A program made the translations under genes and the position numbers. A model generated the notes under the pieces. That model searched no databases. It was not told where the DNA came from and saw only the letters and a program-made list of their open reading frames with translations. DNA of 64,000 nt from Candidatus Daviesbacteria bacterium (GTDB taxonomy: Bacteria; Patescibacteriota; Microgenomatia; Daviesbacterales; UBA10151), in the NCBI GenBank assembly GCA_016184225.1, contig JACPDA010000005.1, forward strand, positions 3,590 through 67,589. Direction: 5' to 3'. The stretch's first letter is position 1. Each line of letters starts with the position of its first letter. This document shows positions 9,157 through 56,864 of the stretch, piece after piece.

Positions 9157-9229
9157 AGTTTCATATTAGGATAGAGTATACACATTTGTAAAGCATTGTT
9201 GACAAGATATACAACGATCGTGGTATATT

Positions 9230-9736
9230 TTGTATATGGGGAAAAAAGAAAGTATTGGGAAATTAGTCCTTCTAGCTTTGGAAAAAGCGATTGATGGTTA
9301 TGTGAGACTTGAGGATTTTGCTTATCACCATTATCGTTACCATTATGGAATCCCTGAGCTTAAAAAAGCTTCCCTTGCTCAAGCTTTGAAGAGACTGCGT
9401 GAGAAAGGGTTTATTGAGAAAGTTGCGGAAAAAGATGAGGGCAAAATTATTTTAAGATTAACAGAAGCCGGCCGGGAATTTCTTTTGTTTTCAAAGCCTG
9501 AAGATGAAATTAAATGGGACAGAAAGTGGAGAATTGTAGTTTTTGATATTCCTGAGAGCAAAAGACAAGTGCGTGATGTCTTGCGGAGAAGATTAAAACT
9601 GTGGGATTTTAAACCCTGGCAAAAGAGTGTCTGGGCCTCCAAGAAAAATGTTACAGATAAACTCCGCAGCCTAATAAAAGAATTGGATATTGCCGATTGG
9701 GTATTGGTAATTGAATCTGATAATGTGGGTCGATGA
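9230..9736 (+). CDS. PaaX-like small regulator: N-terminal winged HTH plus C-terminal Cas2-like/ferredoxin-like domain (paralog 1 of 3)
   Basis: LLALEKAIDGYVRLEDF... then WDRKWRIVVFDIPESKRQVRDVLRRRLKLWDFKPWQKSVW, which resembles the Cas2 core pattern; flanked by ~27 bp direct repeats at 9211-9240 and 9745-9773. Confidence 0.5.
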   Translation: MYMGKKESIGKLVLLALEKAIDGYVRLEDFAYHHYRYHYGIPELKKASLAQALKRLREKGFIEKVAEKDEGKIILRLTEAGREFLLFSKPEDEIKWDRKWRIVVFDIPESKRQVRDVLRRRLKLWDFKPWQKSVWASKKNVTDKLRSLIKELDIADWVLVIESDNVGR

Positions 9737-9768
9737 CAATTTTTGCAACGATCGTTGGGTATTTTGTA

Positions 9769-10539
9769 TTAAGATTGTTTGGTTTCAAGCTTCTGAATTA
9801 AGCTTTCCACAGCTTCTCTGTCTGTTTCAGCCAAGGTTTCGATTCCGGATATAACTTCTAAAGTAAGAGGTTTTCGGCTGTGGATTAAAATTTCATCTTC
9901 TGATTCAAAACCTTCCCGTATTTGATTTCGGAGTAGCTTTTCATTGTAGTAGATGATGGTTCCTCGTCGGGCAATGGATTGGGTCAGAATTCCTTTTAGC
10001 TCAAGGATTGACATGCTAGAGTTTTCAAAACCAAAAAGCGGTGGATGCTGCCAGTCTGCCGCATCTTGAAACCAGTGGAAGGTAAAATCTAGAAAGGCAT
10101 CATCTTTGTACTGAGTCACTGAAGTTGGAAAGAGCAGGTAAGTTAGCGCAACAATTTGTGTTTCATCGAGTAGTTTTGTTCCTATTAGAGATTCAAAATG
10201 GTGCTCGATTGCCTGCCATCCAGCATGAGTTTTGAGTCGTCTTCTCATAGAATCATGGGATAGATCAGAAATCTCACGAAGTCTTCGGACCAGGCTAGGT
10301 TTATAATGCTCCAGATTTTCAGCAAAGGGATATGCGAAATAGAGATAGCCACCACTGGTTAGAATGTCTTTTTGGTAAGCTAACAGATTCTGGTCAGTGT
10401 AGGAAGCGCCCCAAGGTATTTGACCGGAGGTTACGGCTCGTTCTAAAAATTCCACACTGGTTCCGTAACCAGCTATAGCTTGGTTGCTAAAACCATCTGA
10501 TACCCAGTGTCTTAATAGTTCGGCTGTTTTTCTTGGCAT
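9769..10539 (-). CDS. Hypothetical protein (256 aa)
   Basis: ORF only. Confidence 0.35.
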   Translation of the reverse strand: MPRKTAELLRHWVSDGFSNQAIAGYGTSVEFLERAVTSGQIPWGASYTDQNLLAYQKDILTSGGYLYFAYPFAENLEHYKPSLVRRLREISDLSHDSMRRRLKTHAGWQAIEHHFESLIGTKLLDETQIVALTYLLFPTSVTQYKDDAFLDFTFHWFQDAADWQHPPLFGFENSSMSILELKGILTQSIARRGTIIYYNEKLLRNQIREGFESEDEILIHSRKPLTLEVISGIETLAETDREAVESLIQKLETKQS

Positions 10540-10542
10540 AAC

Positions 10543-11211
10543 TTAATTTAGCTCAACCACCGATACTTTTACTTTATTGTCATTGTACTCAAACCTAAAA
10601 GAAATAGGCTTGGCTTTATTATTGGTAATATAAAGATTCTGGAGCGTGCTGGACCCTTTTACAAATGGATTTGAATAAATAGAGACCCCGAACTCTTTGG
10701 GAACATCGGGGATATTGGCAAAATTGTGGTTAGTAGGGGCTTCTACCGAAAGGCCGGCATCTTTCGCCACCCAATTTATTAGAGAAGCCAAGTGGCAAAC
10801 CCCGTCACCGAACAAGTACCCGTCTGTTTTAAAGCCTTCAGCAGCATTAAAATGGGCATTAGTAGTTTTAACCAGCAGATCCTTATACTCCGCCTTTACG
10901 TCAGAGTGGAAAGCAAAGGTTTTATTGGGTAGCAATTTAAACTCATACCGGAATGGTTTTTCAATCTCATCCCAGTTAATGTCGGAAGCCTTATTAACCC
11001 TGCCTTCCATATAGGCGAGGTTTAGCAGGATATTTTTCTTAAAAACATCATTAACAAACCGGTCCGGCTGGCGGTTATCCAGGGAGATCTGCCGGTAGGC
11101 CAATAAATGATCGTTCCCAATAACTCCCAGCAGTGAGCCAAATGTCAGGGGAATAAGGGCAAAGATTTGTATGGGTTTTTTCATATTAGTACAAAGTGCG
11201 TATTTTATCAT
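10543..11211 (-). CDS. VanW-like protein with N-terminal signal/TM
   Basis: Core GDGVCHLASLINWVAKDAGL...NHNF resembles the VanW GGGVCQ...H motif region. Confidence 0.4.
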   Translation of the reverse strand: MIKYALCTNMKKPIQIFALIPLTFGSLLGVIGNDHLLAYRQISLDNRQPDRFVNDVFKKNILLNLAYMEGRVNKASDINWDEIEKPFRYEFKLLPNKTFAFHSDVKAEYKDLLVKTTNAHFNAAEGFKTDGYLFGDGVCHLASLINWVAKDAGLSVEAPTNHNFANIPDVPKEFGVSIYSNPFVKGSSTLQNLYITNNKAKPISFRFEYNDNKVKVSVVELN

Positions 11212-11260
11212 ACTATGGGTTCAAAAGTCAAGGTGGAATACTGTATGGTATGATTAATTT

Positions 11261-11983
11261 GTGATACGGCTTCTGCCCTTTATTTTGGTGCCTATTTTAA
11301 TAGTGGCCGGTTTAGGTTACTGGCGGCTTACCGGAAGCAAAACCAGCTCTCCTGCTGCCAAGGCAGAGCAAGTAGCGGACAAAGGCCCGGTAGAGGTCCC
11401 CAAGACCTTGCCTGAGGCAACCGTAGAAGATAGACTAAAAAGTCTGGAAGATATAGTCGCCAAATTGGCATCGAAGGTTAATAACCTTAAGCCCTCAAAA
11501 TCCGATACTACAACCGGTTCCCTGGATTCCAATGTCAAGGATCTTGAATCTGCAGTCACAGAGCTAAAGGCTCGGGTTTCGAGCTTAGAAAAAGCCACCC
11601 AGGCACCTGCTACTGCTTCCAAATCGCCTTTGTATATTCCTCTTGGCGGCGGCGGCGGACCCTGGGCAGACCAGGACTATAATACCCTAAATGAATACCA
11701 GGCAGCCATAAATTCTGATAACTACTCCGGCTATTCCAGCATGCAGCTGGAAGTAAATTTTAGGTTGGCAGAAGCAGCCGGGACAGGGTATGTAAGATTG
11801 TATAATGTGACTGATGGTAGTTCAATTTCTTCGGAGGTTTCTACTACCGGAACCGCTTTTGGTTTACAGACTTCCGGTACTTTTAAGCTGCCCGGTGGAC
11901 AAAAAACCTATACCATTCAGGTTAAGAGCAGCCAGGGTAAAAACCTGTTTGTCCAATCAGCCAGGATTAAGGTGAATTTCTAA
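11261..11983 (+). CDS. Hypothetical membrane-anchored/secreted protein with coiled coil and a beta-rich C-terminus
   Basis: N-terminal TM, heptad-like middle region, Gly-rich linker; non-ATG start. Confidence 0.35.
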   Translation: MIRLLPFILVPILIVAGLGYWRLTGSKTSSPAAKAEQVADKGPVEVPKTLPEATVEDRLKSLEDIVAKLASKVNNLKPSKSDTTTGSLDSNVKDLESAVTELKARVSSLEKATQAPATASKSPLYIPLGGGGGPWADQDYNTLNEYQAAINSDNYSGYSSMQLEVNFRLAEAAGTGYVRLYNVTDGSSISSEVSTTGTAFGLQTSGTFKLPGGQKTYTIQVKSSQGKNLFVQSARIKVNF

Positions 11984-12044
11984 AAGATGGAATAGATTTG
12001 AATTAATATGGTTTACCACAATCATGAACGAACTGAACTGATTG

Positions 12045-12118
12045 TGGCAGGGGTGGAAGGAATCGAACCCTCGTTAGCAGATTTGGAGTCTGCAGGCCTA
12101 CCACTGACCGACACCCCT
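12045..12118 (-). tRNA. trnW: tRNA-Trp (anticodon CCA), 3' CCA encoded
   Basis: Cloverleaf folded by hand from the reverse complement; anticodon loop CUCCAAA; T-loop TTCGATT. Confidence 0.85.
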
Positions 12119-12211
12119 AAACTTTCCAATTGTACCTAAAATTTACTGATAAGACAATGCAAGCTATCGAAGTTATAGACAAACATTATACGGCCGTGAT
12201 ATAAATGTCTA

Positions 12212-12730
12212 ATGGGGAAGTTACCACAAACTAAGAAAGGAGCAGTTACAAACTTAATTCTTTTGGCTCTAGAGAAAGCAATTGACGGCTACGTCAGGCT
12301 GGAAGATTTTCTCTATAATCCCGGATATTACGCCTATGGTGATGGTTGGAATTACCCATTAAATAAAGCATCTTTAGCAAAAGCGCTGCAAAGGCTCAGA
12401 CAAGCAGGGTTTATTGAACTTTTAGAAGATAAAGATTTAATACTAAGGTTGACTGATAAAGGTAGAGAAAGGGCTGTCTTGGCAGAGCTTCAAAGTCTGG
12501 CTGGAGAATGGGATGGAAGATGGAGGATAGTAATCTTTGATGTTCCAGAAAAAAGAAGGTCAGCCAGAGATTTGTTAAGGCACAATCTTAAGACCTGGGG
12601 ATTTACACCCTGGCAGCAAAGTGTTTGGGTGACAAAGAAAAATTGTACTGCACCGCTAAGGAAATATATTAAAAATGTGGGAATAGAGGATTGGGTGTTG
12701 GTAATTGAATCAGATGATATTGGTCGTTAG
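12212..12730 (+). CDS. PaaX-like wHTH plus Cas2-like-fold protein (paralog 2 of 3)
   Basis: Same architecture and motifs as 9230-9736 (WDGRWRIVIFDVPEKRRSARDLLRHNLKTWGFTPWQQSVW); flanked by direct repeats 12177-12209 and 12728-12761. Confidence 0.5.
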   Translation: MGKLPQTKKGAVTNLILLALEKAIDGYVRLEDFLYNPGYYAYGDGWNYPLNKASLAKALQRLRQAGFIELLEDKDLILRLTDKGRERAVLAELQSLAGEWDGRWRIVIFDVPEKRRSARDLLRHNLKTWGFTPWQQSVWVTKKNCTAPLRKYIKNVGIEDWVLVIESDDIGR

Positions 12731-12763
12731 ACAAACATTATACGGCTGTTGTATACTTGTCTT

Positions 12764-12931
12764 TTAAAGTTTAATTTCCTTATGTTCGGTACTTCGGCGG
12801 CAATGTTTACAAAATTTACTCAGAGTCAGCTTTTCTTTGATATTTACCGTGTTTTTCGTCGCAGTATAATTCTTAGCTTTACAAACAGAACACTGGAATA
12901 TAAATAATTGCCGGTTGCCTTTTTTAGCCAT
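12764..12931 (-). CDS. rpmG: 50S ribosomal protein L33 (Cys4 zinc-ribbon type); absent from the ORF track because it is under 60 aa
   Basis: Hand translation of the minus strand: MAKKGNRQLFIFQCSVCKAKNYTATKNTVNIKEKLTLSKFCKHCRRSTEHKEIKL, which fits the L33 pattern; classic position near tRNA-Trp. Confidence 0.75.
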   Translation of the reverse strand: MAKKGNRQLFIFQCSVCKAKNYTATKNTVNIKEKLTLSKFCKHCRRSTEHKEIKL

Positions 12932-12964
12932 ACGACTTAATACATAATACTAAATACTAAAGAC

Positions 12965-13321
12965 TTAGGATTTTAGCTTTCTGCTAAAGCCATAAAGTCT
13001 TTTAACAATAGATTCGCATTTTAACATAAATTTCTGATGTGTTGAAGTATTAATATATTTTAGATCGAAACTAATATCTAATATGGCTACGATCTCACTT
13101 ACTGAACCTATCGAAATCATCAAAAATCGATTAAACTCTGCATCAGATCTCTTCATGGATCCTTCAGCTAGGTTAAGTAATACGGAAGTAGAAGCCCTTC
13201 TCAGTTGAGAAGCTAATTCAAATTGTTCTTGTTTTGGCAACTTGCTGCACAGTTGGTAAATCTCTTTTACAAAGCTACGAATATCTTGATAAATGGAGAA
13301 ATCTCTGAATCTAAATGACAT
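12965..13321 (-). CDS. Four-helix-bundle protein (23S rRNA IVS protein / Avd-like family), paralog 1 of 4
   Basis: Family signature ...EQFELASQLRRASTSVLLNLAEGSMK...EFNRFL... Confidence 0.7.
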   Translation of the reverse strand: MSFRFRDFSIYQDIRSFVKEIYQLCSKLPKQEQFELASQLRRASTSVLLNLAEGSMKRSDAEFNRFLMISIGSVSEIVAILDISFDLKYINTSTHQKFMLKCESIVKRLYGFSRKLKS

Positions 13322-13380
13322 TTGTATCAGGTATTAAGTATTTAAGTTAGGCTTTAGGTCTTAAGTCTTAAGTCAATTCT

Positions 13381-13454: not shown

Positions 13455-13466
13455 CAAATAACCTCA

Positions 13467-13576: not shown

Positions 13577-13577
13577 A

Positions 13578-15290: not shown

Positions 15291-15326
15291 CAAAAATATC
15301 TTGGCAAAAAGTTGTATAATAAAGTC

Positions 15327-17844: not shown

Positions 17845-17847
17845 TTG

Positions 17848-29580: not shown

Positions 29581-30651
29581 ATGTTGCAGATGCCTTTCTA
29601 CGATCCGAATAAAAGCTATGAAGATAATTATGACCAGGGGCCGTTTGGGGCTTTTGTCGAAGGGGAAATCCTCGAGCAAACAGGGGAGCCAAAAGAGGAT
29701 TTTTTAGGGCAAAAAGTTTTTACTCCATTCGGAATTCCGGCAGGTCCACTGATAAATGCTAAGTTTTGTAAGGCTGCTTTTGAGAAGGGCTTTGATATTT
29801 GTGTTTATAAAACAGTCAGAAGCTCTGTCTTCCCCTGCCATCCTTTCCCCAATATTTTGGCTGTAAAACTCGAAGGCGATTTAACCTCTGAGAAGGCTAA
29901 AACTAAGCTTATTGCAGACAATAATTACTCCGAGCCTCTGTCCATTACCAACTCCTTTGGAGTGCCTTCCAAGAAGCCTAATGTTTGGCAGGAAGATGTT
30001 AAAAAGGCTTTTTTCTCTGCCGGAGCCGGCCAGGTTTTGGTTTTAAGCTTTATGGGTACTGTCCGGGAAGGTCAAACTGCGGAAGAGTTTGTGGCTGATT
30101 ATGCTTTGGCTGCCAAGCTCTCAAAAGAAACCGGTGCCAAAGTGCTGGAAGCCAATTTGTCCTGCCCAAATATAGGTAATGAAGGCTTAGTTTGTTATAA
30201 CTTGGAAATGACGGAAAAGGTTTGTGAAGCCATCAGGAAAGAAATTGGCGACACCCCTTTGGTCCTAAAAGTTGGTTACTATACCTCTGATGAAGATTTG
30301 AAAAAGCTGGTGGAAATAGCCGGAAAATATGCCAATGCTATTGCGGCCATTAATACCATTTCAGCTGAAGTGGTGAATCAGGAAGGTAAGCAGGCATTAC
30401 CGGGAAATAATAGGCTCCGTTCAGGGGTTTGTGGAGCTGGGATTAAGTGGGCCGGCCTGGATATGGTCAAAAGACTGAGAAAGGTAACAGGGTACAGGGT
30501 ACAGGGTACAGTAAAAATTATAGGTGTGGGTGGAGTAACTAAGCCGGAAGATTATTTTGAATACAGGCAAGCCGGGGCAGATGCTGTAATGTCGGCCACC
30601 GGAGCCATGTGGAACCCCTATTTAGCAAAGGAAATTAAAGAAAAAATCTGA
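29581..30651 (+). CDS. pyrD: Dihydroorotate dehydrogenase-family flavoenzyme (class 1 DHODH / dihydropyrimidine dehydrogenase-like)
   Basis: ANLSCPN active-site loop, IIGVGGV, FMN-binding pattern; next to pyrE and pyrF; contains an in-frame GGGTACA x3 repeat at 30488-30510. Confidence 0.7.
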   Translation: MLQMPFYDPNKSYEDNYDQGPFGAFVEGEILEQTGEPKEDFLGQKVFTPFGIPAGPLINAKFCKAAFEKGFDICVYKTVRSSVFPCHPFPNILAVKLEGDLTSEKAKTKLIADNNYSEPLSITNSFGVPSKKPNVWQEDVKKAFFSAGAGQVLVLSFMGTVREGQTAEEFVADYALAAKLSKETGAKVLEANLSCPNIGNEGLVCYNLEMTEKVCEAIRKEIGDTPLVLKVGYYTSDEDLKKLVEIAGKYANAIAAINTISAEVVNQEGKQALPGNNRLRSGVCGAGIKWAGLDMVKRLRKVTGYRVQGTVKIIGVGGVTKPEDYFEYRQAGADAVMSATGAMWNPYLAKEIKEKI

Positions 30652-38064: not shown

Positions 38065-39147
38065 GTGAATAATATTCCGTATTTGTTGGCGCTTCATTCC
38101 ATTGATGGACTGGGGCCGATTAGGTTACGGGCCATTTTAGAATATTTTAAAGACCCGAAGCTGGCTTGGGAAGCAAATGAAAATGAGCTTCTGAAGCTGG
38201 GCATTTTTAGAAACACGGTTAATCTTTTGGTGGAAACCCGGAAAAAACTGGATCCGGAAACTTATGCCAAAAAGATTGCTGAAAGCGGTATAAAGTGGAT
38301 TACGATTTTTGATGAGGCTTACCCAAAATTATTAGCCCAAATCTATGATCCGCCGATAGTAATTTATTATAAAGGGGAGCCGGATTGGGATAAAAAAGCG
38401 ATCGGGGTGGTGGGAACCAGAAAAATAACTGGTTACGGTAAAGTTGTAACAGAGAAGTTTACAAAAGGCTTAAGTTTAGCCGGTTTAACTATTGTTTCCG
38501 GGTTGGCCCGGGGGGTAGATGCACAGGCACATTTGACAGCAGTCTCGGAGAATGGTAAGACAATTGCAGTAATGGGCGGAGGATTAAATAATATTTTTCC
38601 TCCGGAAAATAGGGGCCTGGCGGCAAAAATTGCAGATAACTTTGGAGCAGTTATTTCCGAGTTTCCGCCAAATTATCCATCACTCCCAGGGAATTTCCCG
38701 GCAAGGAACAGGATTATATCGGGACTATCTTTGGGAGTTTTGGTGATTGAAGCGGCAGAAGATTCCGGGTCGCTTATTACTGCTAGGCTTGCTTTAGAGC
38801 AGGGTCGTGAAGTTTTTGCTGTTCCCGGTCCAATTACTTCTGATTTGTCAAAAGGTCCGATTGATCTGATTCGGGAGGGGGCGAGGATCGTATTTAGTCC
38901 GGAAGAGATTTTGGAAGAGTTGGGAATTAATAGAGTCAAGAGTCTAGAGTCAAGAGTCAAGAACGAAAGGGATCTTTCGGAAGAAGAAAGACAAATCTTG
39001 GAAGTTTTAGAAAACGAGAGCAGACATATTGATGAGATTGGCAGACAGTTAAATTTTCCTTCCCCAAAAATTTCTGCTTTGCTACTGAAAATGGAGATTT
39101 CAGGACTTGTAGAGAGCATGGGTGCTGGGATATACTGCAAGAAGTAA
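38065..39147 (+). CDS. dprA: DNA processing protein DprA/Smf (GTG start); contains an in-frame family-C heptamer block at 38929-38965
   Basis: GVVGTRKITGYGK...SGLARGVDAQAH Rossmann-like DprA core; C-terminal winged-helix extension. Confidence 0.85.
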   Translation: MNNIPYLLALHSIDGLGPIRLRAILEYFKDPKLAWEANENELLKLGIFRNTVNLLVETRKKLDPETYAKKIAESGIKWITIFDEAYPKLLAQIYDPPIVIYYKGEPDWDKKAIGVVGTRKITGYGKVVTEKFTKGLSLAGLTIVSGLARGVDAQAHLTAVSENGKTIAVMGGGLNNIFPPENRGLAAKIADNFGAVISEFPPNYPSLPGNFPARNRIISGLSLGVLVIEAAEDSGSLITARLALEQGREVFAVPGPITSDLSKGPIDLIREGARIVFSPEEILEELGINRVKSLESRVKNERDLSEEERQILEVLENESRHIDEIGRQLNFPSPKISALLLKMEISGLVESMGAGIYCKK

Positions 39148-42728: not shown

Positions 42729-42923
42729 TTGATCGGGTTTTGTAATCGTTTTATAACTTCGGGAGTTGCAGGCTGAGTTGCAGGCTAAATTCCCCTTTTA
42801 TATCATTTCATGATGCGGTCGTACACTAAATTGGTTTGGTACAGACTTTAGCGTTTTGTAACGATCGTTAAGTTTTAGTAAAGTTTTCTTGGCCTGTTTT
42901 GTTAAAAATGCTATGCTAGAGTA

Positions 42924-43352
42924 GTGAAGAAAATAATTTTCCTCTTAGGAATACTGGCAGTTTTTGTACCAATAACTGTTTTTGCGGTCACAACTTCTGG
43001 AACAAGTCCAGAGATTCTTCGCTCCGCTCAGAATGACAAAGGGGGGTTAAATTCCTTATACCAAATAAACCAAAAAGTTTGTGACAGGTTTGAAACAGAC
43101 ATATTAAAGCTGGCGGCAATTATGGAAGAACTTAGAAGAAGAAAAGGAATTACGGAAACCAGGGTGGCTTTTGGGGGGACAGATACCCCGATTAAAAACG
43201 CTGATTATTGGGTGACTTACAGCGCAGAAGCGCTGGCCTTTCAACGGGCCCAAAAATATTCTTCCCAGGCCAGTTTGAGAAGCAGTTTGGAAGTTTTAAA
43301 AAATAAAATCTTAAGAGCTAAGAGTGAAGTAGGAAGGGCATTAAATGAATAA
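42924..43352 (+). CDS. Hypothetical secreted protein (signal peptide)
   Basis: ORF with an N-terminal hydrophobic segment. Confidence 0.3.
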   Translation: MKKIIFLLGILAVFVPITVFAVTTSGTSPEILRSAQNDKGGLNSLYQINQKVCDRFETDILKLAAIMEELRRRKGITETRVAFGGTDTPIKNADYWVTYSAEALAFQRAQKYSSQASLRSSLEVLKNKILRAKSEVGRALNE

Positions 43353-43605
43353 AAACAAAATACTGACGATCGTGATAGTTTTGTTGTTATTAGTTATATT
43401 ATTGACGATCGTTAGATATTTGTCTAATCAGAATGGGTTACTGATAAATCCCGGAGTTAAAAAAGCAACCGGGCAATCAACAGTGCAGCCATCAACTCCT
43501 GCCTACAATCCTCCCAAAGAAGTTAAATATGATGGCAGTACTGATTTACAAAAAGAACTGGATTCTATCGAGCCACAAGTTTTGGACAGCGATTTTCAGG
43601 ATTAA
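43345..43605 (+). CDS. Hypothetical small membrane protein
   Basis: ORF; contains two ACGATCGT palindromes. Confidence 0.3.
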   Translation: MNKNKILTIVIVLLLLVILLTIVRYLSNQNGLLINPGVKKATGQSTVQPSTPAYNPPKEVKYDGSTDLQKELDSIEPQVLDSDFQD

Positions 43606-43688: not shown

Positions 43689-45839
43689 ATGACTAATTTA
43701 GTAATTGTGGAATCACCTACAAAAGCAAGAACACTGCAAAGATTTCTGGGTGATAAATATCAAATTGAAGCTTCCATGGGGCATGTCAGGGACCTGCCCA
43801 AGTCTGAGCTGGGAGTGGATGTGGATAAAAACTTTGAGCCCCAGTATATTATCCCCCGCGATAAGAAAAAAAGGGTAAATGAGCTAAAAAAAGTGGCAAA
43901 GACAGCAGATACCCTTTGGCTGGCTACAGATCCTGATCGGGAAGGTGAGGCGATCGCCTGGCATTTGTCAGAATTGCTGCGCAATTCTGAAGTGAAAAGT
44001 GCAAAGTGCAAAGTGCAAAGTGGGGAAACAGATATTAAAAGAGTAGTGTTTCATGAGATTACAGAACAAGCCATTAAGGAAGCCTTTGAGAATCCCAGAA
44101 GTATCGATCTAAAGCTGGTCGATGCCCAGCAAGCCAGAAGGGTACTGGACAGGTTGGTAGGTTATAAACTTTCTCCCTTGCTATGGGAAAAAGTTAAAAG
44201 AGGGTTGTCTGCCGGAAGAGTGCAATCCGTGGCCCTGCGGCTGATAGTGGAAAGAGAAAGGGAAGTTGTTGCTTTTAAGGCAGAGGAGTATTGGAATATT
44301 GAGGTAGAGCTGGAAGGTAACAGTGGACAGGCAACAGGCGACAGTTTCATTGCCACTTTAATAGAGCAAAACGGCAAGAAACTGGAAATCGGCAGTAAAG
44401 AGGAAGCAGATGGGCATGTTAAAAATTTGGAAAAAGCGCAGTATCAAGTTTCTAAGGTTACCCAAAGAGAGGTTCGCCGTTTCCCTTATCCGCCGTTTAC
44501 CACTTCAACTATGCAGCAGGCGGCAGCAAATAAACTTGGAATGTCTGCCAAAAAAACCATGATGCTCGCCCAAGCTTTGTATGAACACGGGTTGATTACC
44601 TACATGAGGACAGATTCTGTTAATTTATCCTCTCAGGCAATCGGAGCAGTAAGAGACTATATTGGAAATTTTATTGGCAAACCTTATTTGCCAAGTGTGG
44701 CCAGGGTTTTTAAGTCTAAATCCAAAAATGCCCAGGAAGCGCATGAGGCGATCAGGGTCACAGACGTCAGTCGTCAGTCGTCAGTCGTCAGACAAATTTC
44801 AAGTATGAATAAAGATCATGCCCGGCTTTATGAGCTGATTTGGAAAAGGTTTGTGGCTTGTCAAATGAATGAGGCGGTGATAGATCAGACCACGGTGGAT
44901 GTGAGTGCCGGCAACAATGTCATTCTGGGGACGAAAGAAGTGAGGACTCCAGAATCTTTAAGGAAGGATTCTGGACAAGCCAGAATGACATGCAACTATC
45001 TCCTTCGGGCAACCGGTAGTGTAATTAAGTTCGATGGCTGGTTAAAGCTATATGGCAAGGGTACAGGTGACAGTGAACAGGGGACAGAAGAAGATAAAGA
45101 AAAAATACTGCCGAAACTTGCAGAAAAAGAGCCGCTTAACCTGATTCAGCTTTTACCAGGCCAGCATTTTACAGAACCTCCCCCGAGATATAATGAGGCT
45201 TCTTTGATTAAAAAACTGGAGGAACTGGGGATTGGCCGGCCTTCTACTTATGCGCCGATTTTATCTACCATTCAGGAGCGGTTTTATGTGGAAAAATTGG
45301 AGAGAAAATTTATTCCAACCTCACTGGGTACAACTGTCATTGATTTTTTGATGGAGTATTTTGCGGATATTATTGACTATGCTTTTACCGCTCAAATGGA
45401 GGATGAGCTGGATGAGATAGCCAGGGGGGAAAGGCAGTGGCGCCCAACCATTAAAACGTTTTATGAACCATTTGAGAAAAAGTTGATTGAGACGGAAAAG
45501 AAAGCTAAAAAAGTGAAAATGGAAGTAGAGTTTGCTGGTAAAAAGTGTCCTGAGTGCGGGAAAGAGCTGATTGTCAGAATTGGCAAGTTTGGCAAGTTCC
45601 TGGCTTGTTCCGGTTTTCCGGAGTGCAAGCATACGGAATCTTTGGAAGAAAAAATTAATGCCAAGTGTCCGGATGACGGTGGGGATATTGTGGTCAGGCA
45701 TACCAAAAGAGGAAAAACTTTTTACGGCTGCAAAAACTGGCCGGTCTGCAAATTTGCTTCTTGGACAAAACCCAAGACAGGCAACAGTGCGCAGGCGACA
45801 GGCGACAGTAACACAGACAGCAAAAATGAGAACGCATAA
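43689..45839 (+). CDS. topA: DNA topoisomerase I with C-terminal zinc ribbons; carries at least six in-frame repeat blocks
   Basis: TOPRIM N-terminus (LVIVESPTKARTL), core domains, CPECGKEL...C and ...CKNWPVC zinc fingers. Confidence 0.9.
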   Translation: MTNLVIVESPTKARTLQRFLGDKYQIEASMGHVRDLPKSELGVDVDKNFEPQYIIPRDKKKRVNELKKVAKTADTLWLATDPDREGEAIAWHLSELLRNSEVKSAKCKVQSGETDIKRVVFHEITEQAIKEAFENPRSIDLKLVDAQQARRVLDRLVGYKLSPLLWEKVKRGLSAGRVQSVALRLIVEREREVVAFKAEEYWNIEVELEGNSGQATGDSFIATLIEQNGKKLEIGSKEEADGHVKNLEKAQYQVSKVTQREVRRFPYPPFTTSTMQQAAANKLGMSAKKTMMLAQALYEHGLITYMRTDSVNLSSQAIGAVRDYIGNFIGKPYLPSVARVFKSKSKNAQEAHEAIRVTDVSRQSSVVRQISSMNKDHARLYELIWKRFVACQMNEAVIDQTTVDVSAGNNVILGTKEVRTPESLRKDSGQARMTCNYLLRATGSVIKFDGWLKLYGKGTGDSEQGTEEDKEKILPKLAEKEPLNLIQLLPGQHFTEPPPRYNEASLIKKLEELGIGRPSTYAPILSTIQERFYVEKLERKFIPTSLGTTVIDFLMEYFADIIDYAFTAQMEDELDEIARGERQWRPTIKTFYEPFEKKLIETEKKAKKVKMEVEFAGKKCPECGKELIVRIGKFGKFLACSGFPECKHTESLEEKINAKCPDDGGDIVVRHTKRGKTFYGCKNWPVCKFASWTKPKTGNSAQATGDSNTDSKNENA

Positions 45840-50656: not shown

Positions 50657-51618
50657 GCAGACCGAAGCATCAAGAATATCAATATCTGGATTTACTAAAA
50701 GACATTCTAAAAAATGGCGTTAAAAAAATTGATCGGGGTACTGATGTAGCTTTGTATAGTGTTTTTGGCCGCCAGATCCGCTTTGATCTTTCGCAAGGGT
50801 TTCCGCTTTTAACCACCAAAAAAGTGTATTGGAAGGGAGTTTTGGAAGAACTTTATTGGTTTTTTTCAGGACAATCAAATATCAAATATTTGGTAGACCG
50901 TAATGTCCACATCTGGGATGATTATCCATATAAGATTTATAGTGCCAAGTGCCAAGTGCAAAGTGCAAAGTGTTTGACCAAGGAAAAATTTATAGAGAAG
51001 ATCAGGACTGATGAGCAATTTGCCAAGAAATGGGGAGAGTTACCAAGGATTTATGGTGAGATGTGGAGACGCTGGCCCACCAGAACAAAAAGAACCATTG
51101 ATCAACTGAAATGGATAGTCCAGGAATTAAAAGATGATCCTGATGCCAAAAATTTAATTGTTAATTCCTGGAATCCCGAATATTTATATACCATGGCTAC
51201 ATATGAAGATACTTCCCATTTTCCGATTTGTCACAATATGTTTCAGATTAACCAAAGAGCAGGTAAGCTTTCCTTGCAGCTTTATCATCGCAGCTGTGAT
51301 GTTTTCTTGGGTGTGCCTTTTAATATCGCAAGTTATGCATTACTGACTATGGTTTTAGCTAAAATTACGGGATATGAGCCGGGTGAATTTATTCATACTT
51401 TTGGTGATGTCCATATTTACGAAAATCATATGGCTCAAGTTAAAGAGCAGATTAAAAGAAAACCTAAGCATTTTCCCACCGTAAAAATAGATAAAGGCTT
51501 AAAAACAATTGAAGACTTTAAGCCGGAACTGGTAACTTTAGAAAATTATGATCCGCATCCGGTAATAAAAGCTGAGTTAACTGTGGCAGGTGGATATTAT
51601 GCAAAAACCAAAAGTTAG
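50653..51618 (+). CDS. thyA: Thymidylate synthase (ThyA type) with an insertion containing a heptamer tandem repeat (50941-50972)
   Basis: ...PICHNMFQINQRAGKLSLQLYHRSCDVFLGVPFNIASYALL... catalytic Cys region. Confidence 0.9.
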   Translation: MSRPKHQEYQYLDLLKDILKNGVKKIDRGTDVALYSVFGRQIRFDLSQGFPLLTTKKVYWKGVLEELYWFFSGQSNIKYLVDRNVHIWDDYPYKIYSAKCQVQSAKCLTKEKFIEKIRTDEQFAKKWGELPRIYGEMWRRWPTRTKRTIDQLKWIVQELKDDPDAKNLIVNSWNPEYLYTMATYEDTSHFPICHNMFQINQRAGKLSLQLYHRSCDVFLGVPFNIASYALLTMVLAKITGYEPGEFIHTFGDVHIYENHMAQVKEQIKRKPKHFPTVKIDKGLKTIEDFKPELVTLENYDPHPVIKAELTVAGGYYAKTKS

Positions 51619-53073: not shown

Positions 53074-53239
53074 AGAGAGTCCGGCTCGTCTGGATCGCAA
53101 AGTACCGCTCGTGCGACCACGTCACTCGCTATTTGTTTGTTTCGCGCCGAGTGATGGCTGGGTCATGAAGTGATTAGTGTGCTCAACGGCACCGATTACT
53201 TTGTTGTCTTAAGACTTCGCCGTCCTACAAGGAGGATTT

Positions 53240-53689: not shown

Positions 53690-53758
53690 AGTCTAGAGTC
53701 AAGAATCTAGAGTCTAGGAAAACAAAGTCTAGACTCTCGACTCTAGCAACTAGTCACT
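53687..53758. repeat. Family-C palindromic element filling the tsf-frr spacer (begins at the tsf TAG)
   Basis: TAGAGTCTAGAGTCAAGAATCTAGAGTCTAGG...GTCTAGACTCTCGACTCTAGCAACTAGTCACTAT. Confidence 0.8.
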
Positions 53759-53765
53759 ATTAAAC

Positions 53766-54320
53766 ATGGATCCGATTTTAAACGAACCGAATGAGAAAAT
53801 AGAGGCAGTATTGCACCACTTCAAAGTGGAAATTGCCGGTATCCGGGCTGGTAGGGCAAACCCGGCTTTGATAGAGAATATTTTGGTTAACGCTTATGGA
53901 TCCAACATGAAGCTTAACGAGGTGGGCAATATTTCTGCCCCGCAGCCCTCCCTTTTAACAATCCAGGTTTGGGATGCTTCTATTTTGGATAAAGTAATCA
54001 AGGCTATCCAGGAAGCAAATTTAGGTTTAAACCCTTCCAATGAAGGTACGTTAATCCGTTTGCCAATTCCTCCTTTGACTGCTGAAAGGCGTGAAGAATT
54101 TATTAAGCTGTTACATCAAAAGAGAGAGGAAGCGCATGTTTCCATCAGACAAATCAGGCATGATTTTAGAAACGGCTGGAAAAAGCAGTCAGACGAGGGT
54201 CAGTTTGGAGAGGATGAATTTTTCCGCAGGGAAAAAATTTTACAAGAGCTGGTGGACAAAAAAGTTGCAGAGATTGAAGAGTTAGGGAAAGCCAAGGCAG
54301 AAGAGCTAACACAAATATAG
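53766..54320 (+). CDS. frr: Ribosome recycling factor
   Basis: Canonical RRF sequence. Confidence 0.9.
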   Translation: MDPILNEPNEKIEAVLHHFKVEIAGIRAGRANPALIENILVNAYGSNMKLNEVGNISAPQPSLLTIQVWDASILDKVIKAIQEANLGLNPSNEGTLIRLPIPPLTAERREEFIKLLHQKREEAHVSIRQIRHDFRNGWKKQSDEGQFGEDEFFRREKILQELVDKKVAEIEELGKAKAEELTQI

Positions 54321-54393
54321 CTTTCAGTCATCAGTCTTCAGCTTTCAGACTTTTCTGATTTGTCTGACGACTGACAGCTGACAGCTGACGACT
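54321..54393. repeat. Family-A palindromic element filling the frr-rseP spacer
   Basis: CTTTCAGTCATCAGTCTTCAGCTTTCAGAC-11nt-GTCTGACGACTGACAGCTGACAGCTGACGACT, then ATTATG. Confidence 0.8.
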
Positions 54394-54396
54394 ATT

Positions 54397-55497
54397 ATGA
54401 TATTTTCCATCATCATTTTTATTATTACCCTGTTGGTTTTAGTCCTAATCCATGAATTTGGACACTTTTTAGTAGCCAAGAAATTTGGCATTAAAGTGGA
54501 AGAATTTGGATTTGGCATTCCTCCCAGAGCTTGGGGTAAAAAAATCGGTGAAACCATATACTCTATAAACTGGTTGCCTTTTGGAGGCTTTGTCAGACTA
54601 TTAGGAGAGGATGAGGAAGAATCTGAGGGCAAGAAAATTTCTGTAAAAAATAGCAGGGATTTTAGGACCAAGCCGGTAAGCAAAAGGATCATAGTTGTGG
54701 TGGCAGGGGTCATCATGAACTTAGTCCTGGCTTGGATACTGTTTTATACAGTAATTGTTTCCCAAAACTTTAAAGTTATTTATCCTGCTGCCCAACCGGC
54801 AGTTTACATTGCCAAAGTACAGCAGGATTTCCCAGCAGTCAAAGCCGGCATAAAAGTGGGAGAGAAGTTGGTAGCCATAGATAACCAACCAGCCATCGAT
54901 ATTGAACAAGCCAGGGAAGAGATTAAATCCAAAGACGAAAAACCGCTGATTTTAACCTTGGCTGACAGTGACGGAAACAACCCTAGAAAAGTGGAGGTGA
55001 CTCCTAAAAAGCAGCCAAACGGTGATGTGCTGATTGGGGTAATATTTAGTCCCATCCCTTTCCGGGATTATACAACTACCAGCCAAAAAGTCTTCTCCGG
55101 AATCACTTATTCCTGGGATTTAACCAGGCTTACCTTTGTTGGTCTGGGAGGCTTAATCAATGATTTAATTTCGGGGAATTTCGGGCAGGCTTCAAAGTCC
55201 GTAGCCGGGCCGGTAGGATTGGCTGTAGTGACGGGTGAAATTTTATCCGCCGGTTGGGCAGCTATTTTACCATTTCTGTGGTTTGTCGGAGTCATCTCCT
55301 TAACCTTAGCCATCTTTAATGTCTTACCCATTCCGGCACTGGATGGAGGCAGGTTACTGTTTTTGGTGATTGAGGCAATTAGCCGTAAAAAGGTCAGGGA
55401 AGATGTAGAAAAAATGGTTCATCAAGTCGGGTTTATGATCCTTCTTGCTTTGGCCTTACTTGTGACATTTTCAGATATCCGCAAACTGCTTCCATAG
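54397..55497 (+). CDS. rseP: RIP zinc metalloprotease RseP (M50 with PDZ)
   Basis: HEFGHFLVAKKFG, a PDZ domain, FNVLPIPALDGG. Confidence 0.85.
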   Translation: MIFSIIIFIITLLVLVLIHEFGHFLVAKKFGIKVEEFGFGIPPRAWGKKIGETIYSINWLPFGGFVRLLGEDEEESEGKKISVKNSRDFRTKPVSKRIIVVVAGVIMNLVLAWILFYTVIVSQNFKVIYPAAQPAVYIAKVQQDFPAVKAGIKVGEKLVAIDNQPAIDIEQAREEIKSKDEKPLILTLADSDGNNPRKVEVTPKKQPNGDVLIGVIFSPIPFRDYTTTSQKVFSGITYSWDLTRLTFVGLGGLINDLISGNFGQASKSVAGPVGLAVVTGEILSAGWAAILPFLWFVGVISLTLAIFNVLPIPALDGGRLLFLVIEAISRKKVREDVEKMVHQVGFMILLALALLVTFSDIRKLLP

Positions 55498-55506
55498 GGG
55501 ATTTTT

Positions 55507-56169
55507 ATGATTGAAAGAATTTGTCAGTGGTTAGAAAGAGGGGTAATGATAGGGACGGCAATTGTTAACCCTGCTGCAGCACCAGCCAGTAGTATTTCGG
55601 CAGAGGTCCTTGGGCAGTTAGCATCTCCTCAAGTTGTGGTTATACCAGGCTCTATGCCCTCACAAAGGCTAAGTACCATTAGCTCCAATTTGGATATTAG
55701 GCTCTTTCTTATCGGTAGTTTCCCCAATAGGCCCGAAAATCTCTTAGATGAATTGCCTTTAGAAAATGCCAAGGTTAATTTAGGCGATCAGGTTACACCC
55801 GGAGTCAGAATCTATGTTGTAAATAAAAAAGAAAGTTATCCTGCTGAACTTATTGTGGAGACAAAAGTACAGACTCAAGGAGTGGAAGCAAAAGCTTGTA
55901 CATTACCCCCAAGCATAGATTGTACGCTCAAAGCTCCGTTAGATGTCAGTGTTTCTCTTAGAACGGTAGCATTAGGCCTTCCAGGGGTAGGCTTGATCGA
56001 AGAGAATTCTCTTACCAGGATTGAGGCGATACGGGGATTTGGGAGGGAGCATATCATAATAAGAGTAAAGGATAAAGCTAATGAGAATGTACTCTTTGAA
56101 CAACAAGTAGATGTAACTGTATTACCGGAACAGACACAGTTTTTACCCCTTTTGCAAGTTAGCCGCTAA
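55507..56169 (+). CDS. Hypothetical protein (220 aa)
   Basis: ORF only. Confidence 0.3.
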   Translation: MIERICQWLERGVMIGTAIVNPAAAPASSISAEVLGQLASPQVVVIPGSMPSQRLSTISSNLDIRLFLIGSFPNRPENLLDELPLENAKVNLGDQVTPGVRIYVVNKKESYPAELIVETKVQTQGVEAKACTLPPSIDCTLKAPLDVSVSLRTVALGLPGVGLIEENSLTRIEAIRGFGREHIIIRVKDKANENVLFEQQVDVTVLPEQTQFLPLLQVSR

Positions 56170-56271
56170 ATTAATTATCTGAAAGTAGATAGAGTTGGTC
56201 ATGGTTACAACTAGTCGCTATAGCGATCCATTGTAACCTTAGTTAGAATCTGCTATTGTATATTTACACTT

Positions 56272-56832
56272 ATGAATGACAAAAAAATTCTAACAAGAGA
56301 GGTTTTAAAAGTGATTGCAGTAAGTGGGATATTAATCGGTTCTGCTTTTCTGCCCACCCTACCTATGGCTGCCGGGGCAGTTATCAAAGCCTGGAAAGAT
56401 ATAAATAAAAAGGATCTTGGAAGAATAATCAAAAGGCTTGAAAAGCAGGAGATGATCTTTATGGAAGAAAGGGCTGACGGTAAGATGGCAATACAGATTA
56501 CTGATAAAGGTAGGAAAAGGTTATTGGAATATGATTTTGAGAATATAGAACTGAAGACTAAAAGACGTGATGGGAAATGGAGGTTGGTGATATTTGATAT
56601 CCCGGAGGACAAGAAAAATGCCAGGGATGTTTTTAGAAGAAAACTTTTACAACTGGATTTTATCAGGCTTCAAGACAGTGTTTTTGCTAGTGCTTATCCT
56701 TGTAAGGCGGAAGTGGATTTTTTGTGTCATTTCTTGGGAATCTCAGATTTTGTAACCTTAGTTTCTTTAAATAAAATAGAAAGAGGGGAACAACTGATTT
56801 GGAAAAAGTATCGAGACTTTGGTGACAATTAG
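56272..56832 (+). CDS. PaaX-like wHTH plus Cas2-like-fold protein (paralog 3 of 3)
   Basis: ...TKRRDGKWRLVIFDIPEDKKNARDVFRRKLLQLDFIRLQDSVFAS...; flanked by direct repeats 56202-56237 and 56826-56856. Confidence 0.5.
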   Translation: MNDKKILTREVLKVIAVSGILIGSAFLPTLPMAAGAVIKAWKDINKKDLGRIIKRLEKQEMIFMEERADGKMAIQITDKGRKRLLEYDFENIELKTKRRDGKWRLVIFDIPEDKKNARDVFRRKLLQLDFIRLQDSVFASAYPCKAEVDFLCHFLGISDFVTLVSLNKIERGEQLIWKKYRDFGDN

Positions 56833-56864
56833 TCGCTATCGCGACTCAATGTAACCAGAAAAAT

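Follow-up and report, generated by a model that had tools for sequence, protein, structure and literature searches.

The three paralogous genes p1, p2 and p3, located in the 64-kb window (the whole stretch of DNA analyzed here, from a Daviesbacteria genome of the CPR), probably encode short PaaX-type autorepressors, and the repeats bracketing each gene are, on comparison of their sequences, best taken as two predicted cognate operators. On the best reading of these comparisons, the three are members of a family of short PaaX-type repressors that is very large and occurs throughout the CPR, and the architecture of a repressor gene bracketed by its own two sites appears not to have been described previously. 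A sequence-only reading of this DNA had described three paralogous genes combining a winged helix-turn-helix (wHTH) with a Cas2-like, PaaX-like domain, each inside a copy-specific repeat and one lying between tRNA-Trp and rpmG, and had offered regulators as a fall-back idea; all of these points agree with the results below and with the coordinates in Table 1.

Table 1. Positions of the three genes, their bracketing sites, the neighbors of p2 and the solo sites in the window.
Feature	Position	Strand	Description
p1	9236-9736	+	166-aa wHTH + PaaX_M/Cas2-like protein
p1 5' site	9200-9235	+	36-bp imperfect palindrome (14/18), center CGATCG
p1 3' site	9734-9769	+	begins with stop codon TGA
tRNA-Trp	12045-12118	-	on one side of p2
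p2	12212-12730	+	172-aa paralog, flanked by tRNA-Trp and rpmG
p2 5' site	12176-12211	+	palindrome, center CGGCCG; ATG at 12212
p2 3' site	12728-12763	+	begins with stop codon TAG
rpmG	12764-12931	-	on the other side of p2
p3	56272-56832	+	186-aa divergent paralog; Cas2 Pfam match over cut-off
p3 5' site	56203-56238	+	GGTTACAA-N4-TCGCTATAGCGA-N4-TTGTAACC
p3 3' site	56821-56856	+	covers last four codons and stop of p3
Solo family-type site	3068-3103		28/36 to L062-clade site; palindrome 14/18; inside ORF 2836-3228
Solo p3-type palindrome, third copy	21254-21289		in fmt coding region; 29/36 to p3 5' copy
Solo family-type site	42801-42836		30/36 to L060-clade site; intergenic, upstream of gene 42924-43352
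Solo family-type site	42847-42882		31/36 to L071-clade site; intergenic, upstream of gene 42924-43352
Solo CGATCG-centered palindrome	43352-43387		13/18; 26/36 to a family site
Solo family-type site	43391-43426		28/36 to L066-clade site; inside ORF 43345-43605
Solo family-type site	58809-58844		26/36, L061 type on - strand; over proS stop codon (58815-58817)

All three proteins match the Pfam model PF20803 (PaaX_M, Cas2-like), with E-values of 5e-21, 7.6e-22 and 1.5e-19 for p1, p2 and p3 (70-78 bits against a cut-off of 24), whereas the Cas2 model PF09827 accepts only p3 (25.7 bits, versus 19.0 for p1 and 18.4 for p2; cut-off 23.8). TIGR01573 (Cas2) likewise recovers p3 (26.9 bits, cut-off 24.5) and leaves p1 and p2 below threshold, and the equivalog model for full-length PaaX, TIGR02277, gives 25.6, 31.5 and 28.1 bits for p1, p2 and p3 against a cut-off of 264.55. 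The chains stop after the Cas2-like domain (166-186 aa) and are without the PaaX_C effector domain; a relative, L077 (254 aa), does have a C-terminal extension. Pfam helix-turn-helix matches of the three proteins fall below the cut-offs and the PaaX N-terminal model gives no match; an AF2 model (pLDDT 77.5) has a helix-strand-helix-helix-wing topology at residues 6-94. Foldseek searches with this model return PaaX (8A39, E 6e-6) as the best match, followed by Rv0674 (3KFW) and 3L09; its N-terminal half resembles PadR-type winged helices, with PadR/MarR matches at both the structural and the profile level, and its C-terminal half resembles Cas2 (5XVN_F, 5ZYF). Pairwise identity is 56% between p1 and p2 and 32-36% between p3 and either, and tblastn across the window finds no further paralogs. 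The neighbors are a GH1 glycosidase, a VanW-like protein, tRNA-Trp, rpmG, a T-box-like leader and proS; no paa (phenylacetate catabolism) genes adjoin p1, p2 or p3, no cas genes, including cas1, occur among the neighbors inspected, and Tandem Repeats Finder detects no CRISPR-like array in the window.

Two hallmarks of Cas2, the Asp with which strand 1 ends and the QxS motif, do not vary, and the family's 'ivifDiP...QkSvw' aligns with 'IVFFDLP...QKSVY' of the Cas2 structure 6JHZ; with these residues invariant a catalytic role is conceivable, which counts against the operator reading. We consider it very unlikely that the genes are selfish nuclease or toxin-like modules, in which the winged helix would anchor an active Cas2/VapD-like nuclease and the sites on either side of the gene would be targets of cleavage or self-protection, of a homing type or in the manner of a single-chain toxin-antitoxin. 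The invariant Asp and QxS motif, a weak match to VapD (3UI3), fast-diversifying specificities and the absence of an evident target gene within 3 kb of most family members would suit such a module, but the counterpart region of PaaX is described as a dimerization motif (PMC9493321), PADLOC yields only weak Cas2 matches, no conserved partner gene lies alongside, and family orthologs are more conserved than their neighbors and hold stable positions (p2 orthologs are 74% identical, where GH1 reaches 57% and rpmG 62%). The Cas2 E-values are weak, at 0.02 and weaker except for p3 against Pfam. The family shares its ferredoxin-like fold and motifs with Cas2 and VapD, and the fold also with PaaX. Cas2 is a protein of about 90-100 aa that stands alone, with cas1 and a CRISPR array next to its gene; in the family the domain is fused to a winged helix. 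A type II toxin-antitoxin module of two adjacent small genes was rejected, as the unit is a single gene and no neighbor on either side is conserved across the family.

The repeats around p1, p2 and p3 are 35-37 nt long and copy-specific, with 0.00 matches expected in shuffles of the window. Identity is 81% between 9200-9235 and 9734-9769, 86% between 12176-12210 and 12728-12762, and 84% between 56202-56238 and 56820-56856. Every one of these repeats is an imperfect palindrome, a property overlooked in the sequence-only reading, as were the third p3-type copy inside fmt and the solo sites of other specificity types. The p1 5' site, with the divergent GH1 gene starting 44 nt away, contains the gene's promoter (-35 TTGACA at 9199-9204, and TGn plus -10 TATATT at 9224-9229); ATG 9236 is more likely the start codon than TTG 9230, and since it lies 6 nt past the -10 box the mRNA is probably leaderless. 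Downstream, the 3' site occupies the entire gap up to the stop codon of the convergent gene 9769-10539. The p2 promoter is embedded in the same manner (-35 TAGACA, an 18-nt spacer and -10 TATAAA at 12200-12205), and the p2 3' site ends 1 nt short of the rpmG stop codon. The p3 5' site lies 34 nt 5' of the ATG, on or slightly upstream of the -35 region, and 8 nt separate the end of its 3' site from the downstream -35 box (56865) that serves the T-box-like leader/proS operon.

This layout recurs across the family, in which several paralogs per genome are found and many members adjoin tRNA genes. A cognate pair of sites brackets at least 68 of the 83 family genes in genomes (about 77 by eye) and at least 66 of the 77 in metagenomes, compared with 8 of 341 neighboring genes that reach as high a pair score. 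Long palindromes coincide with 45% of CG[AG][TC]CG hexamers and with about 2% of control hexamers. Dyad and start codon are 17-19 nt apart in 33 of 68 loci, and the promoter score is 10.1 for the 5' copy and 8.75 for the 3' copy against a background of 7.4; the 3' value is alike for co-directional (8.70) and convergent (8.88) neighbors, and the 3' copy is not promoter-like. It overlaps the stop codon or the end of the ORF in 51 of 68 loci, and in the second (metagenome) set mostly lies 5-50 nt beyond the stop codon; its position, on the stop or a few tens of bases after it, is independent of the orientation of the next gene.

We favor autorepression through two operators as the probable function of the unit. 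Each operator would be a dyad-symmetric site of roughly 36 bp, comprising a conserved core and clade-specific outer arms, and the 5' copy would be fused to the gene's own promoter, with the -35 box in the left arm and the -10 box in the right arm; the start codon abutting this site implies a leaderless mRNA. Given where the site lies, a dimer bound there would occlude RNA polymerase and so repress its own gene, and at p1 it may also act on the divergent GH1 beta-glucosidase gene. The 3' copy, having lost promoter features, would be a second operator closing the transcription unit. Its role could be auxiliary, by raising the repressor concentration locally or looping to the promoter, or that of a protein roadblock to transcription out of or into the gene; at loci where the site lies on the stop codon, transcript truncation of the kind LacI brings about at O3 could result. 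No helical phasing is seen in the distance between the two sites (Rayleigh R <= 0.12, n = 68), which leaves looping without support, though about 546 bp is a weakly phase-dependent distance, and because the 3' sites of the second set usually lie 5-50 nt past the stop codon, truncation before it is not the general role.

Precedents come from PaaX and from roadblocks. PaaX of E. coli recognizes TGATTC-N27-GAATCA and autorepresses through steric hindrance at its promoter, and its Cas2-like region is described as a dimerization motif (PMC9493321). PaaX proteins of E. coli and Pseudomonas (8A39, 3L09), which respond to phenylacetyl-CoA, share with the family an N-terminal winged helix followed by a Cas2-like middle domain and a long dyad operator with widely spaced half-sites over the regulator's own promoter, the family operators being predicted. 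Unlike p1, p2 and p3, PaaX has the effector domain; the family differs further in that no paa genes lie nearby, genomes hold several paralogs of distinct specificity, the core is conserved and of CGATCG type, and a second predicted operator lies at the 3' end of the gene; E. coli paaX has no such bracket of sites. The lacI transcript is truncated when LacI occupies O3, its operator at the 3' end of lacI, and the product receives an SsrA tag and is degraded (PMC3711431); C.Kpn2I provides another roadblock precedent (PMC6237814). LacI is, however, an unrelated protein whose O3 serves mainly looping at the lac promoter, whereas the 3' operator of the family is a near-copy of the 5' one, is found family-wide, and in the second set lies mostly past the stop codon.

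The palindromes could in principle work as RNA hairpins or DNA cruciforms, acting as bidirectional terminators or insulators and not as sites for the encoded protein, which we judge improbable. Differences between the two copies of a locus are mirrored such that dyad symmetry itself is kept (35 versus 6-13 and 45 versus 3-7 in controls), a pattern left unexplained by one protein reading both sites that would call for hairpin or cruciform constraints or for template-switch correction. Several sites are perfect palindromes of 36-47 nt, p1 and p2 are followed by no canonical intrinsic terminators, sites take up the space from one stop codon to the convergent one, and the stop codons of both proS and gene 42924-43352 carry solo sites, all as a structural role would have it. 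However, the best-conserved, G+C-rich part of the site is its center, where a hairpin would have its loop instead of its stem, the non-complementary positions of the 3' copies lack a strand-specific G-U bias (60 versus 46), and transcription is predicted to start downstream of the 5' copy. Structure alone also leaves unexplained why paralog-specific arms track the protein tree, and the geometry of the sites fits the known type of PaaX operator.

The core of the site is CGATCG or CGGCCG in the p1/p2 branch and GCTATAGC-like in the p3 branch, and is near-invariant in the first (genome) set; the clade-specific outer arms extend about 11-15 bp on each side of the dyad, and identity at positions ±11 to 15 is 0.8-0.94 within a pair and 0.35-0.55 between loci. 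The alternative that the repeats might be generic intergenic elements is half right, since the arms are truly copy-specific, whereas the core is family-wide and solo sites occur elsewhere. Sites follow the protein clades, the positional groups are the clades, and among orthologs the 5' and 3' copies each retain their own features; in one clade TGACAATT always opens the 5' copy and TACCATTT the 3' copy. The mutual information that links protein columns to site arms does not localize to the recognition helix, which argues against the operator reading. If the two-operator reading holds, protein and sites must match, and the site-gene-site block would consequently diversify and be swapped as one specificity unit.

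Comparison of different genomic contexts indicates such exchange, with homology beginning and ending at the outer edges of the two sites. In one topA-dprA slot, the gene and its sites are replaced between near-identical flanks: DprA is 94% identical and the family protein only 56%, the palindromes differ and there are extra ORFs. From these comparisons the site-gene-site unit is exchanged as one block, and the cassette-like aspect of the sequence-only reading survives in this form. The same reading's view of the repeats as terminal duplications made by insertion does not: the repeats are palindromic and operator-like, pairs of both orientations occur in the family (some clades are clearly inverted, and the inverted alignment is the better one in 22 of the 65 pairs of the second set, with 11 tied), and loci lacking p1 or p2 show no solo site. 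Mixed orientation keeps both target duplication and a simple excision pair from fitting the entire family, and together with the copy-specific features among orthologs and sites that track clades it led us to reject target-site duplication and recent insertion.

A unit of palindrome, gene and palindrome that moves by recombination or transposition at its palindromic ends, these being att-, TIR- or hairpin-like termini instead of regulatory sites, with the Cas2-like domain possibly the catalyst at the core, is unlikely. It would account for the bounded homology and the topA-dprA replacement, for a site-gene-site-gene-site array at L046 (58 nt at 98% identity), and for several pairs that are 100% identical over 30-47 nt, which exceeds operator needs. 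The mirrored compensated changes together with asymmetric cores found flipped would fit hairpin intermediates, the many members beside tRNA genes, the several paralogs per genome and the invariant Cas2-type Asp are in keeping with it, and solo sites could be footprints of lost units. Yet p1, p2 and p3 contain only wHTH and PaaX_M/Cas2-like domains, with no recombinase, transposase or HUH motif detected by Pfam, NCBIfam, PADLOC or PHROGs; there are no family copies in viral contigs and no near-identical copies in different contexts among 171 loci; and the 5' end is the gene's promoter. The mixed orientation, the coincidence of positional groups with clades, the separate features of the 5' and 3' copies and the lack of a solo site where the gene is absent also speak against it.

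It is similarly unlikely that the unit is a new, self-contained exchangeable specificity cassette, in which the winged helix would read the variable arms and the Cas2-like dimer would read and possibly nick the conserved core. Were this true, the element, its 36-bp palindromes being able to fold into hairpins, could renew itself or relocate via hairpin or recombination intermediates, which would cover the flipped cores, mirrored compensated changes, perfectly identical pairs and slot replacement, and a Cas2-fold protein would be tied to repeat-like palindromes outside CRISPR.

Known mobile or exchangeable units resemble these loci in part. In the immunity region of lambdoid phages, cI is flanked by OL and OR, and both operator sets control outward promoters; there too the repressor is bracketed and co-varies with its operators, the whole being swapped as one block as in the topA-dprA slot, whereas in the family the 3' copy lacks promoter character and there is no phage context. 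RAYTs belong to the HUH/Tyr transposases, and REPs occur scattered, in tens to hundreds of copies. REP/RAYT systems (REPINs) share with the family a gene flanked by cognate palindromes of ~35 nt, paralog-specific types and few extra copies elsewhere, but the family has no HUH/Tyr motif and its flanking copies outnumber solo ones (120 versus about 12 in 559 kb). In integron cassettes a single attC stands at the 3' end, a promoter is usually missing and an integrase is required, and target-site duplications are always direct and derived from the target. Like the family, integron cassettes and IS elements are gene-sized units bordered by short repeated or palindromic sequences; unlike them, the family has a 5' copy that is the promoter, mixed orientation, and gene-less loci without the sequence. 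An integron gene cassette was rejected because a site lies on both sides, the promoter is in the 5' copy and the units are single, scattered with one family gene per locus, and a transposon with target-site duplications was rejected because the repeats are not always direct, empty loci lack the sequence and no transposase or recombinase was found.

The solo cognate or family-type sites located elsewhere, in the window (Table 1) and at family loci, suggest that, as autorepressors with two predicted operators, these proteins may also control small regulons. The palindrome at 43352-43387 begins at the last stop-codon base of the gene preceding it, and at locus L030 a promoter-operator of the L020 type stands ahead of a non-family gene.

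The three paralogous genes p1, p2 and p3, for which the sequence-only reading had proposed a winged helix-turn-helix (wHTH) joined to a Cas2-like, PaaX-like fold, are all present as open reading frames (ORFs) on the + strand, and profile and structure searches bear out that architecture. All three match Pfam PF20803 (PaaX_M, 'central Cas2-like domain') with E values of 1e-19 to 1e-22, p3 alone among them also passes the Cas2 model PF09827, and all score 25-31 bits against the full-length PaaX equivalog TIGR02277, far under its cut-off of 264.55. The best match of an AlphaFold2 model of p2 (pLDDT 77.5) is E. coli PaaX (8A39, E 6e-6), followed by Rv0674 3KFW and 3L09; the N-terminal half of the model is covered by PadR-type winged helices and the C-terminal half by Cas2 chains. 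In a profile of the C-terminal domain, the family's 'ivifDiP...QkSvw' aligns with 'IVFFDLP...QKSVY' of Cas2 6JHZ; a single-sequence PDB search with this domain gave no useful match. While p1 and p2 are 56% identical, p3 shares 32-36% identity with each, and tblastn across the window found no further paralog. We conclude that the family is a shortened PaaX that lacks the effector domain. A relative at locus L077 is a full-length PaaX-like protein of 254 aa with a C-terminal helical extension, and its gene is likewise bracketed by near-perfect 36-bp palindromes, CGGACAACTCATGGACGATCGTCCATGAGTTGTCCG (flanks at L077 2770-3764).

A protein identical to the window's is HYU45_04405, and public records label family members as hypothetical or as 'CRISPR-associated endonuclease Cas2'. 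The latter label is probably misleading, as genomic context gives it no support: no CRISPR array was found in the window, and a CRISPR link was rejected on that ground. Also rejected were a defence system, for which PADLOC gave weak Cas2 matches only, and a phage or plasmid origin, since the viral contigs of IMG/VR hold no family relative and the PHROGs matches were to generic wHTH regulators only.

Family genes, bracketing repeat pairs and solo sites in the window
Feature	Position	Strand	Remark
p1	ATG 9236 more likely start than TTG 9230	+	ORF check
p2	12212-12730	+	ORF check
p3	56272-56832	+	ORF check
p1 repeat pair	9200-9235 / 9734-9769		81% identical
p2 repeat pair	12176-12210 / 12728-12762		86% identical
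p3 repeat pair	56202-56238 / 56820-56856		84% identical
Solo p3-type palindrome, full third copy	21254-21289		inside fmt coding region (21018-21719, -), 35 kb from p3
Two adjacent solo sites, different specificity types	42801-42882		upstream of gene 42924-43352
Two solo sites	43352-43426		stop codon of 42924-43352 and next ORF's start, just upstream of topA
Solo family-type site	58809-58844		exactly over proS stop codon; position mirrors family 3' sites

The repeats reported to bracket each gene were recovered in place and are slightly longer than first described; shuffles of the window lead us to expect zero such pairs. The earlier reading had missed that each repeat is an imperfect palindrome in its own right: ACAAnATATnCAACGATCGTTGnATATnTTGT at p1, TAGACAAAnAT.ATACGGCCGT.AT.TTTGTCTA at p2, and GGTTACAA-N4-TCGCTATAGCGA-N4-TTGTAACC at p3. 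At p1 and p2 the gene converges on its downstream neighbour, and the copy after the gene (the 3' site) takes up all the sequence between the two stop codons; no intrinsic terminator was found downstream of either gene. At p3, 8 nt separate the end of the 3' site from the -35 box of a downstream promoter (56865-56893).

This bracketed layout is a trait of the family, which confirms and generalises the observation. Our first set was a genome scan of 80 loci from Daviesbacteria, Curtissbacteria, Blackburnbacteria, Yanofskybacteria and other Patescibacteria, where one genome can hold several paralogs (at least four on chromosome CP066688.1). At about 66 of these loci, a repeat shared by the two flanks of the gene exceeded every one of ~200 random windows from the same locus. 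A stricter, dyad-based search found a pair with at least 22/36 identities in 68 of 83 loci (~77 by eye), and about five first-set loci kept the 5' site alone. The second set comprised 80 independent metagenome loci with p3-like and more distant members, and 66 of the 77 testable loci gave a significant pair; as a control, the same score was reached by only 8 of 341 neighbouring genes, the top cases of which were other phenomena. Long palindromes were present at 45% of 294 CG[AG][TC]CG hexamers in 559 kb, versus ~2% for thirteen control hexamers. Clustered at 50% identity, the family numbers 6008 clusters at E <= 1e-3 and 3547 at E <= 1e-10. The same layout in canonical PaaX was rejected, as a flanking pair was looked for at E. 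coli K-12 paaX and is absent. Separately, two non-family neighbours, at L033 616-1485 (228 aa) and L047 936-2941 (605 aa), lie within direct repeats of 73-77 nt (79-88% identity) that look like duplicated coding sequence, suggesting insertion of a gene into another gene.

Does the bracket record an insertion? To the sequence-only reading the repeats had suggested a mobile or duplicative cassette mechanism, and target duplications from insertion are always direct. In the second set, the inverted orientation of the pair fitted better in 22 cases, the direct in 32 and neither in 11, and the clade of L119, L123, L126 and L151 has an asymmetric core, GCGATAGG, that plainly runs in opposite directions in the 5' and 3' sites. 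The 5' and 3' copies are moreover conserved separately among orthologs, because in a clade of five loci (L056, L060, L062, L065 and L069) the 5' copies all start with TGACAATT (the -35 box) and most of the 3' copies with TACCATTT, the symmetric arm. Relatives lacking the gene at the same position, which had been suggested as a check, have no solo palindrome left there, neither in genomes with GH1 (the glycosidase gene divergent from p1) but without p1, nor between tRNA-Trp and rpmG, the neighbours of p2, in one genome with a different gene in between. The family proteins were found to contain no recombinase domain. We therefore reject a target-site duplication or insertion scar, on the mixed orientation, the gene-less loci without a solo copy and the separate conservation of copies; the insertion-duplication mechanism is not supported. 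In a neighbour-joining tree the proteins cluster by position (beside GH1, tRNA-Trp, tRNA-Leu or tRNA-Pro/Arg), and the site sequences track these clades. p2 is 74% identical to its CP066688.1 ortholog, compared with 57% for GH1 and 62% for rpmG, and in a strain-level presence/absence check all six contigs with an identical p2 protein had the same arrangement.

Some features would fit a mobile or exchangeable cassette. The closest p2 homologs, with 82% and 74% identity, are found in other contexts, and their homology to the window begins and stops at the outer edges of the sites. In a hypervariable topA-dprA slot of two related genomes (L119 1500-3431 and L149 2357-3118), the flanks are ~90% and DprA 94% identical, the family protein is only 56% identical, the palindrome differs, and two additional small ORFs, one with a P-loop-like product, are present in L119; such a replacement resembles the swapping of phage immunity regions. 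Some site pairs are 100% identical over 30-47 nt. The two copies at a locus often differ at mirrored positions, each copy staying symmetric (35 such cases versus 6-13, and 45 versus 3-7, in shifted controls), and at L166 both are perfect 42-nt palindromes. These mirrored differences are not explained by one protein reading both sites; hairpin or cruciform constraints would account for them, as would quasi-palindrome template-switch correction. A Cas2-type Asp is invariant in the family, so a catalytic role is conceivable. Set against a cassette are the lack of a recombinase domain, of a viral relative and, across 171 loci, of nearly identical copies in separate contexts, and we give the mobile or exchangeable cassette a low probability.

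The anatomy of the sites points instead to regulation. The operator bound by E. coli PaaX is a long dyad whose half-sites are far apart, TGATTC-N27-GAATCA; the protein represses its own promoter by steric hindrance, and its middle region is described as a dimerisation motif (PMC9493321). The family sites are of the same design and the 5' copy spans the -35 and -10 boxes, although E. coli paaX is without the bracket of palindromes. The dyad core in the p1/p2 branch, C-G-(A/G)-(T/C)-C-G, is close to invariant, and identity within pairs peaks at positions +-11 to 15 (0.8-0.94, versus 0.35-0.55 between loci), which we therefore take as specificity arms. APC-corrected mutual information between the recognition helix and the arms gave no localisation. 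The 5' site opens with a -35 box (TTGACA, TGACAA or TAGACA) and carries a -10 box, often with TGn, in its right arm; mean promoter scores are 10.1 at the 5' site, 8.75 at the 3' site and 7.4 in the background. The distance from the dyad to the first in-frame start codon is 17-19 nt at 33 of 68 loci, so that the codon abuts the 5' site; since the -10 box is 6-7 nt upstream, leaderless mRNAs are predicted. An RNA hairpin on the coding strand was rejected, there being no strand-specific G-U bias and the conserved core falling in what would be the loop.

From site design and placement, we think it fairly likely that the family proteins are autorepressors, each with the two flanking palindromes as its own operators, in keeping with the earlier suggestion of a regulator. 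Occupancy of the 5' operator, over the promoter boxes, would repress the protein's own gene as PaaX does. The p1 5' site and the divergent GH1 gene are separated by 44 nt, and four other genomes have kept this arrangement; p1 may therefore also co-regulate GH1.

Our confidence in any single role for the 3' operator is lower. It could be an auxiliary operator, acting via looping or local concentration, or a site at which bound protein would form a roadblock and close the transcription unit. Centre-to-centre spacing is 516-572 bp in 66 of 68 pairs (outliers 618 and 647; mean 546), and the 68 pairs show no helical periodicity; helically phased looping was thus not upheld, a result that is uninformative and not decisive. 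Service as the next gene's promoter was rejected as a general role, since in 24 of 82 cases, p1 and p2 among them, that gene points towards the family gene, and the promoter score of the 3' site does not depend on the neighbour's orientation (8.70 co-directional, 8.88 convergent). At 51 of 68 loci the 3' site runs over the stop codon or ORF end, and at sixteen the dyad follows the stop by exactly 15 nt, which makes TGA, TAG or TAA the first three bases of the site. LacI is a roadblock at O3, at the end of lacI, producing truncated transcripts and SsrA-tagged products (PMC3711431), and the controller protein of a restriction-modification (R-M) system acts likewise (PMC6237814). For the Daviesbacteria branch, overlap with the stop codon is consistent with a LacI-like variant. 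Most 3' sites of the second set, however, lie 5-50 nt beyond the stop codon, and any general role would thus be to terminate or insulate, not to truncate.

Sites also occur away from family genes, in a pattern that looks like small regulons. The p3-type copy in fmt, also missed by the earlier reading, could be a distant target or a roadblock site. Six solo sites of other specificity types (3068, 42801, 42847, 43352, 43391 and 58809) agree with family sites at 26-31 of 36 positions, where the 99th percentile of the null is 24, and the cognate regulators of the four between 42801 and 43426 are not encoded in the window. A candidate trans target is a 268-aa non-family gene at locus L030, directly preceded by a promoter-operator (3871-3906) that nearly duplicates the 5' site of a family gene from another genome (L020). 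At L046 (2071-3541) one palindrome occurs three times in direct orientation: before a 221-aa unknown gene, between that gene and the family gene, and after the family gene. Its first and second copies have 58 nt in common at 98% identity.

CPR/Patescibacteria have very small genomes and, to our knowledge, their gene regulation is almost unknown. With 6008 clusters and several paralogs per genome, the family may be a main set of CPR DNA-binding regulators. A predicted operator on either side of each gene would provide hundreds of protein-site pairs for studying how DNA-recognition specificity evolves, as well as orthogonal repressor/operator parts. A roadblock at the 3' site would mean protein-dependent closing of transcription units where canonical terminators are not evident, and a Cas2-like domain presumed to lie at the dyad of a repeat-sized palindrome would bear on ideas about the origin of Cas2. 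Full-text searches on PaaX with Cas2 or Cas2-like domains, PaaX in CPR and CPR transcription-factor palindromes turned up nothing on the family or its layout, and we found no description, for PaaX-type autorepressors, of a fixed architecture of promoter-operator, leaderless ORF and 3' operator on or after the stop.

Other features were noted near the family loci. Downstream of the promoter beside p3 (TTGACA-N17-TAATAT) is a T-box-leader-like element (56904-57105, +; Rfam RF00230, 38.4 bits, E 2.6e-7, under the gathering score of 93; fold z-score -3.85), followed by a GNAT-like gene (57127-57564) and proS (57561-58817). Two paralogous four-helix-bundle genes lie at 12965-13321 and 22940-23305 (-); the former, wedged between rpmG and tRNA-Thr, matches Pfam 23S_rRNA_IVP via an identical metagenome contig. 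The window also contains seven separate tandem arrays of 7-nt units, with 3.6-4.7 copies each, at 23946-23977, 25390-25414, 30487-30511, 38932-38962, 43990-44022, 44761-44791 and 50941-50972 (units ATAGGGT, TCAGTCG, ACAGGGT, AGAGTCA, AAGTGCA, CAGTCGT and AGTGCAA), at least one of them inside topA.
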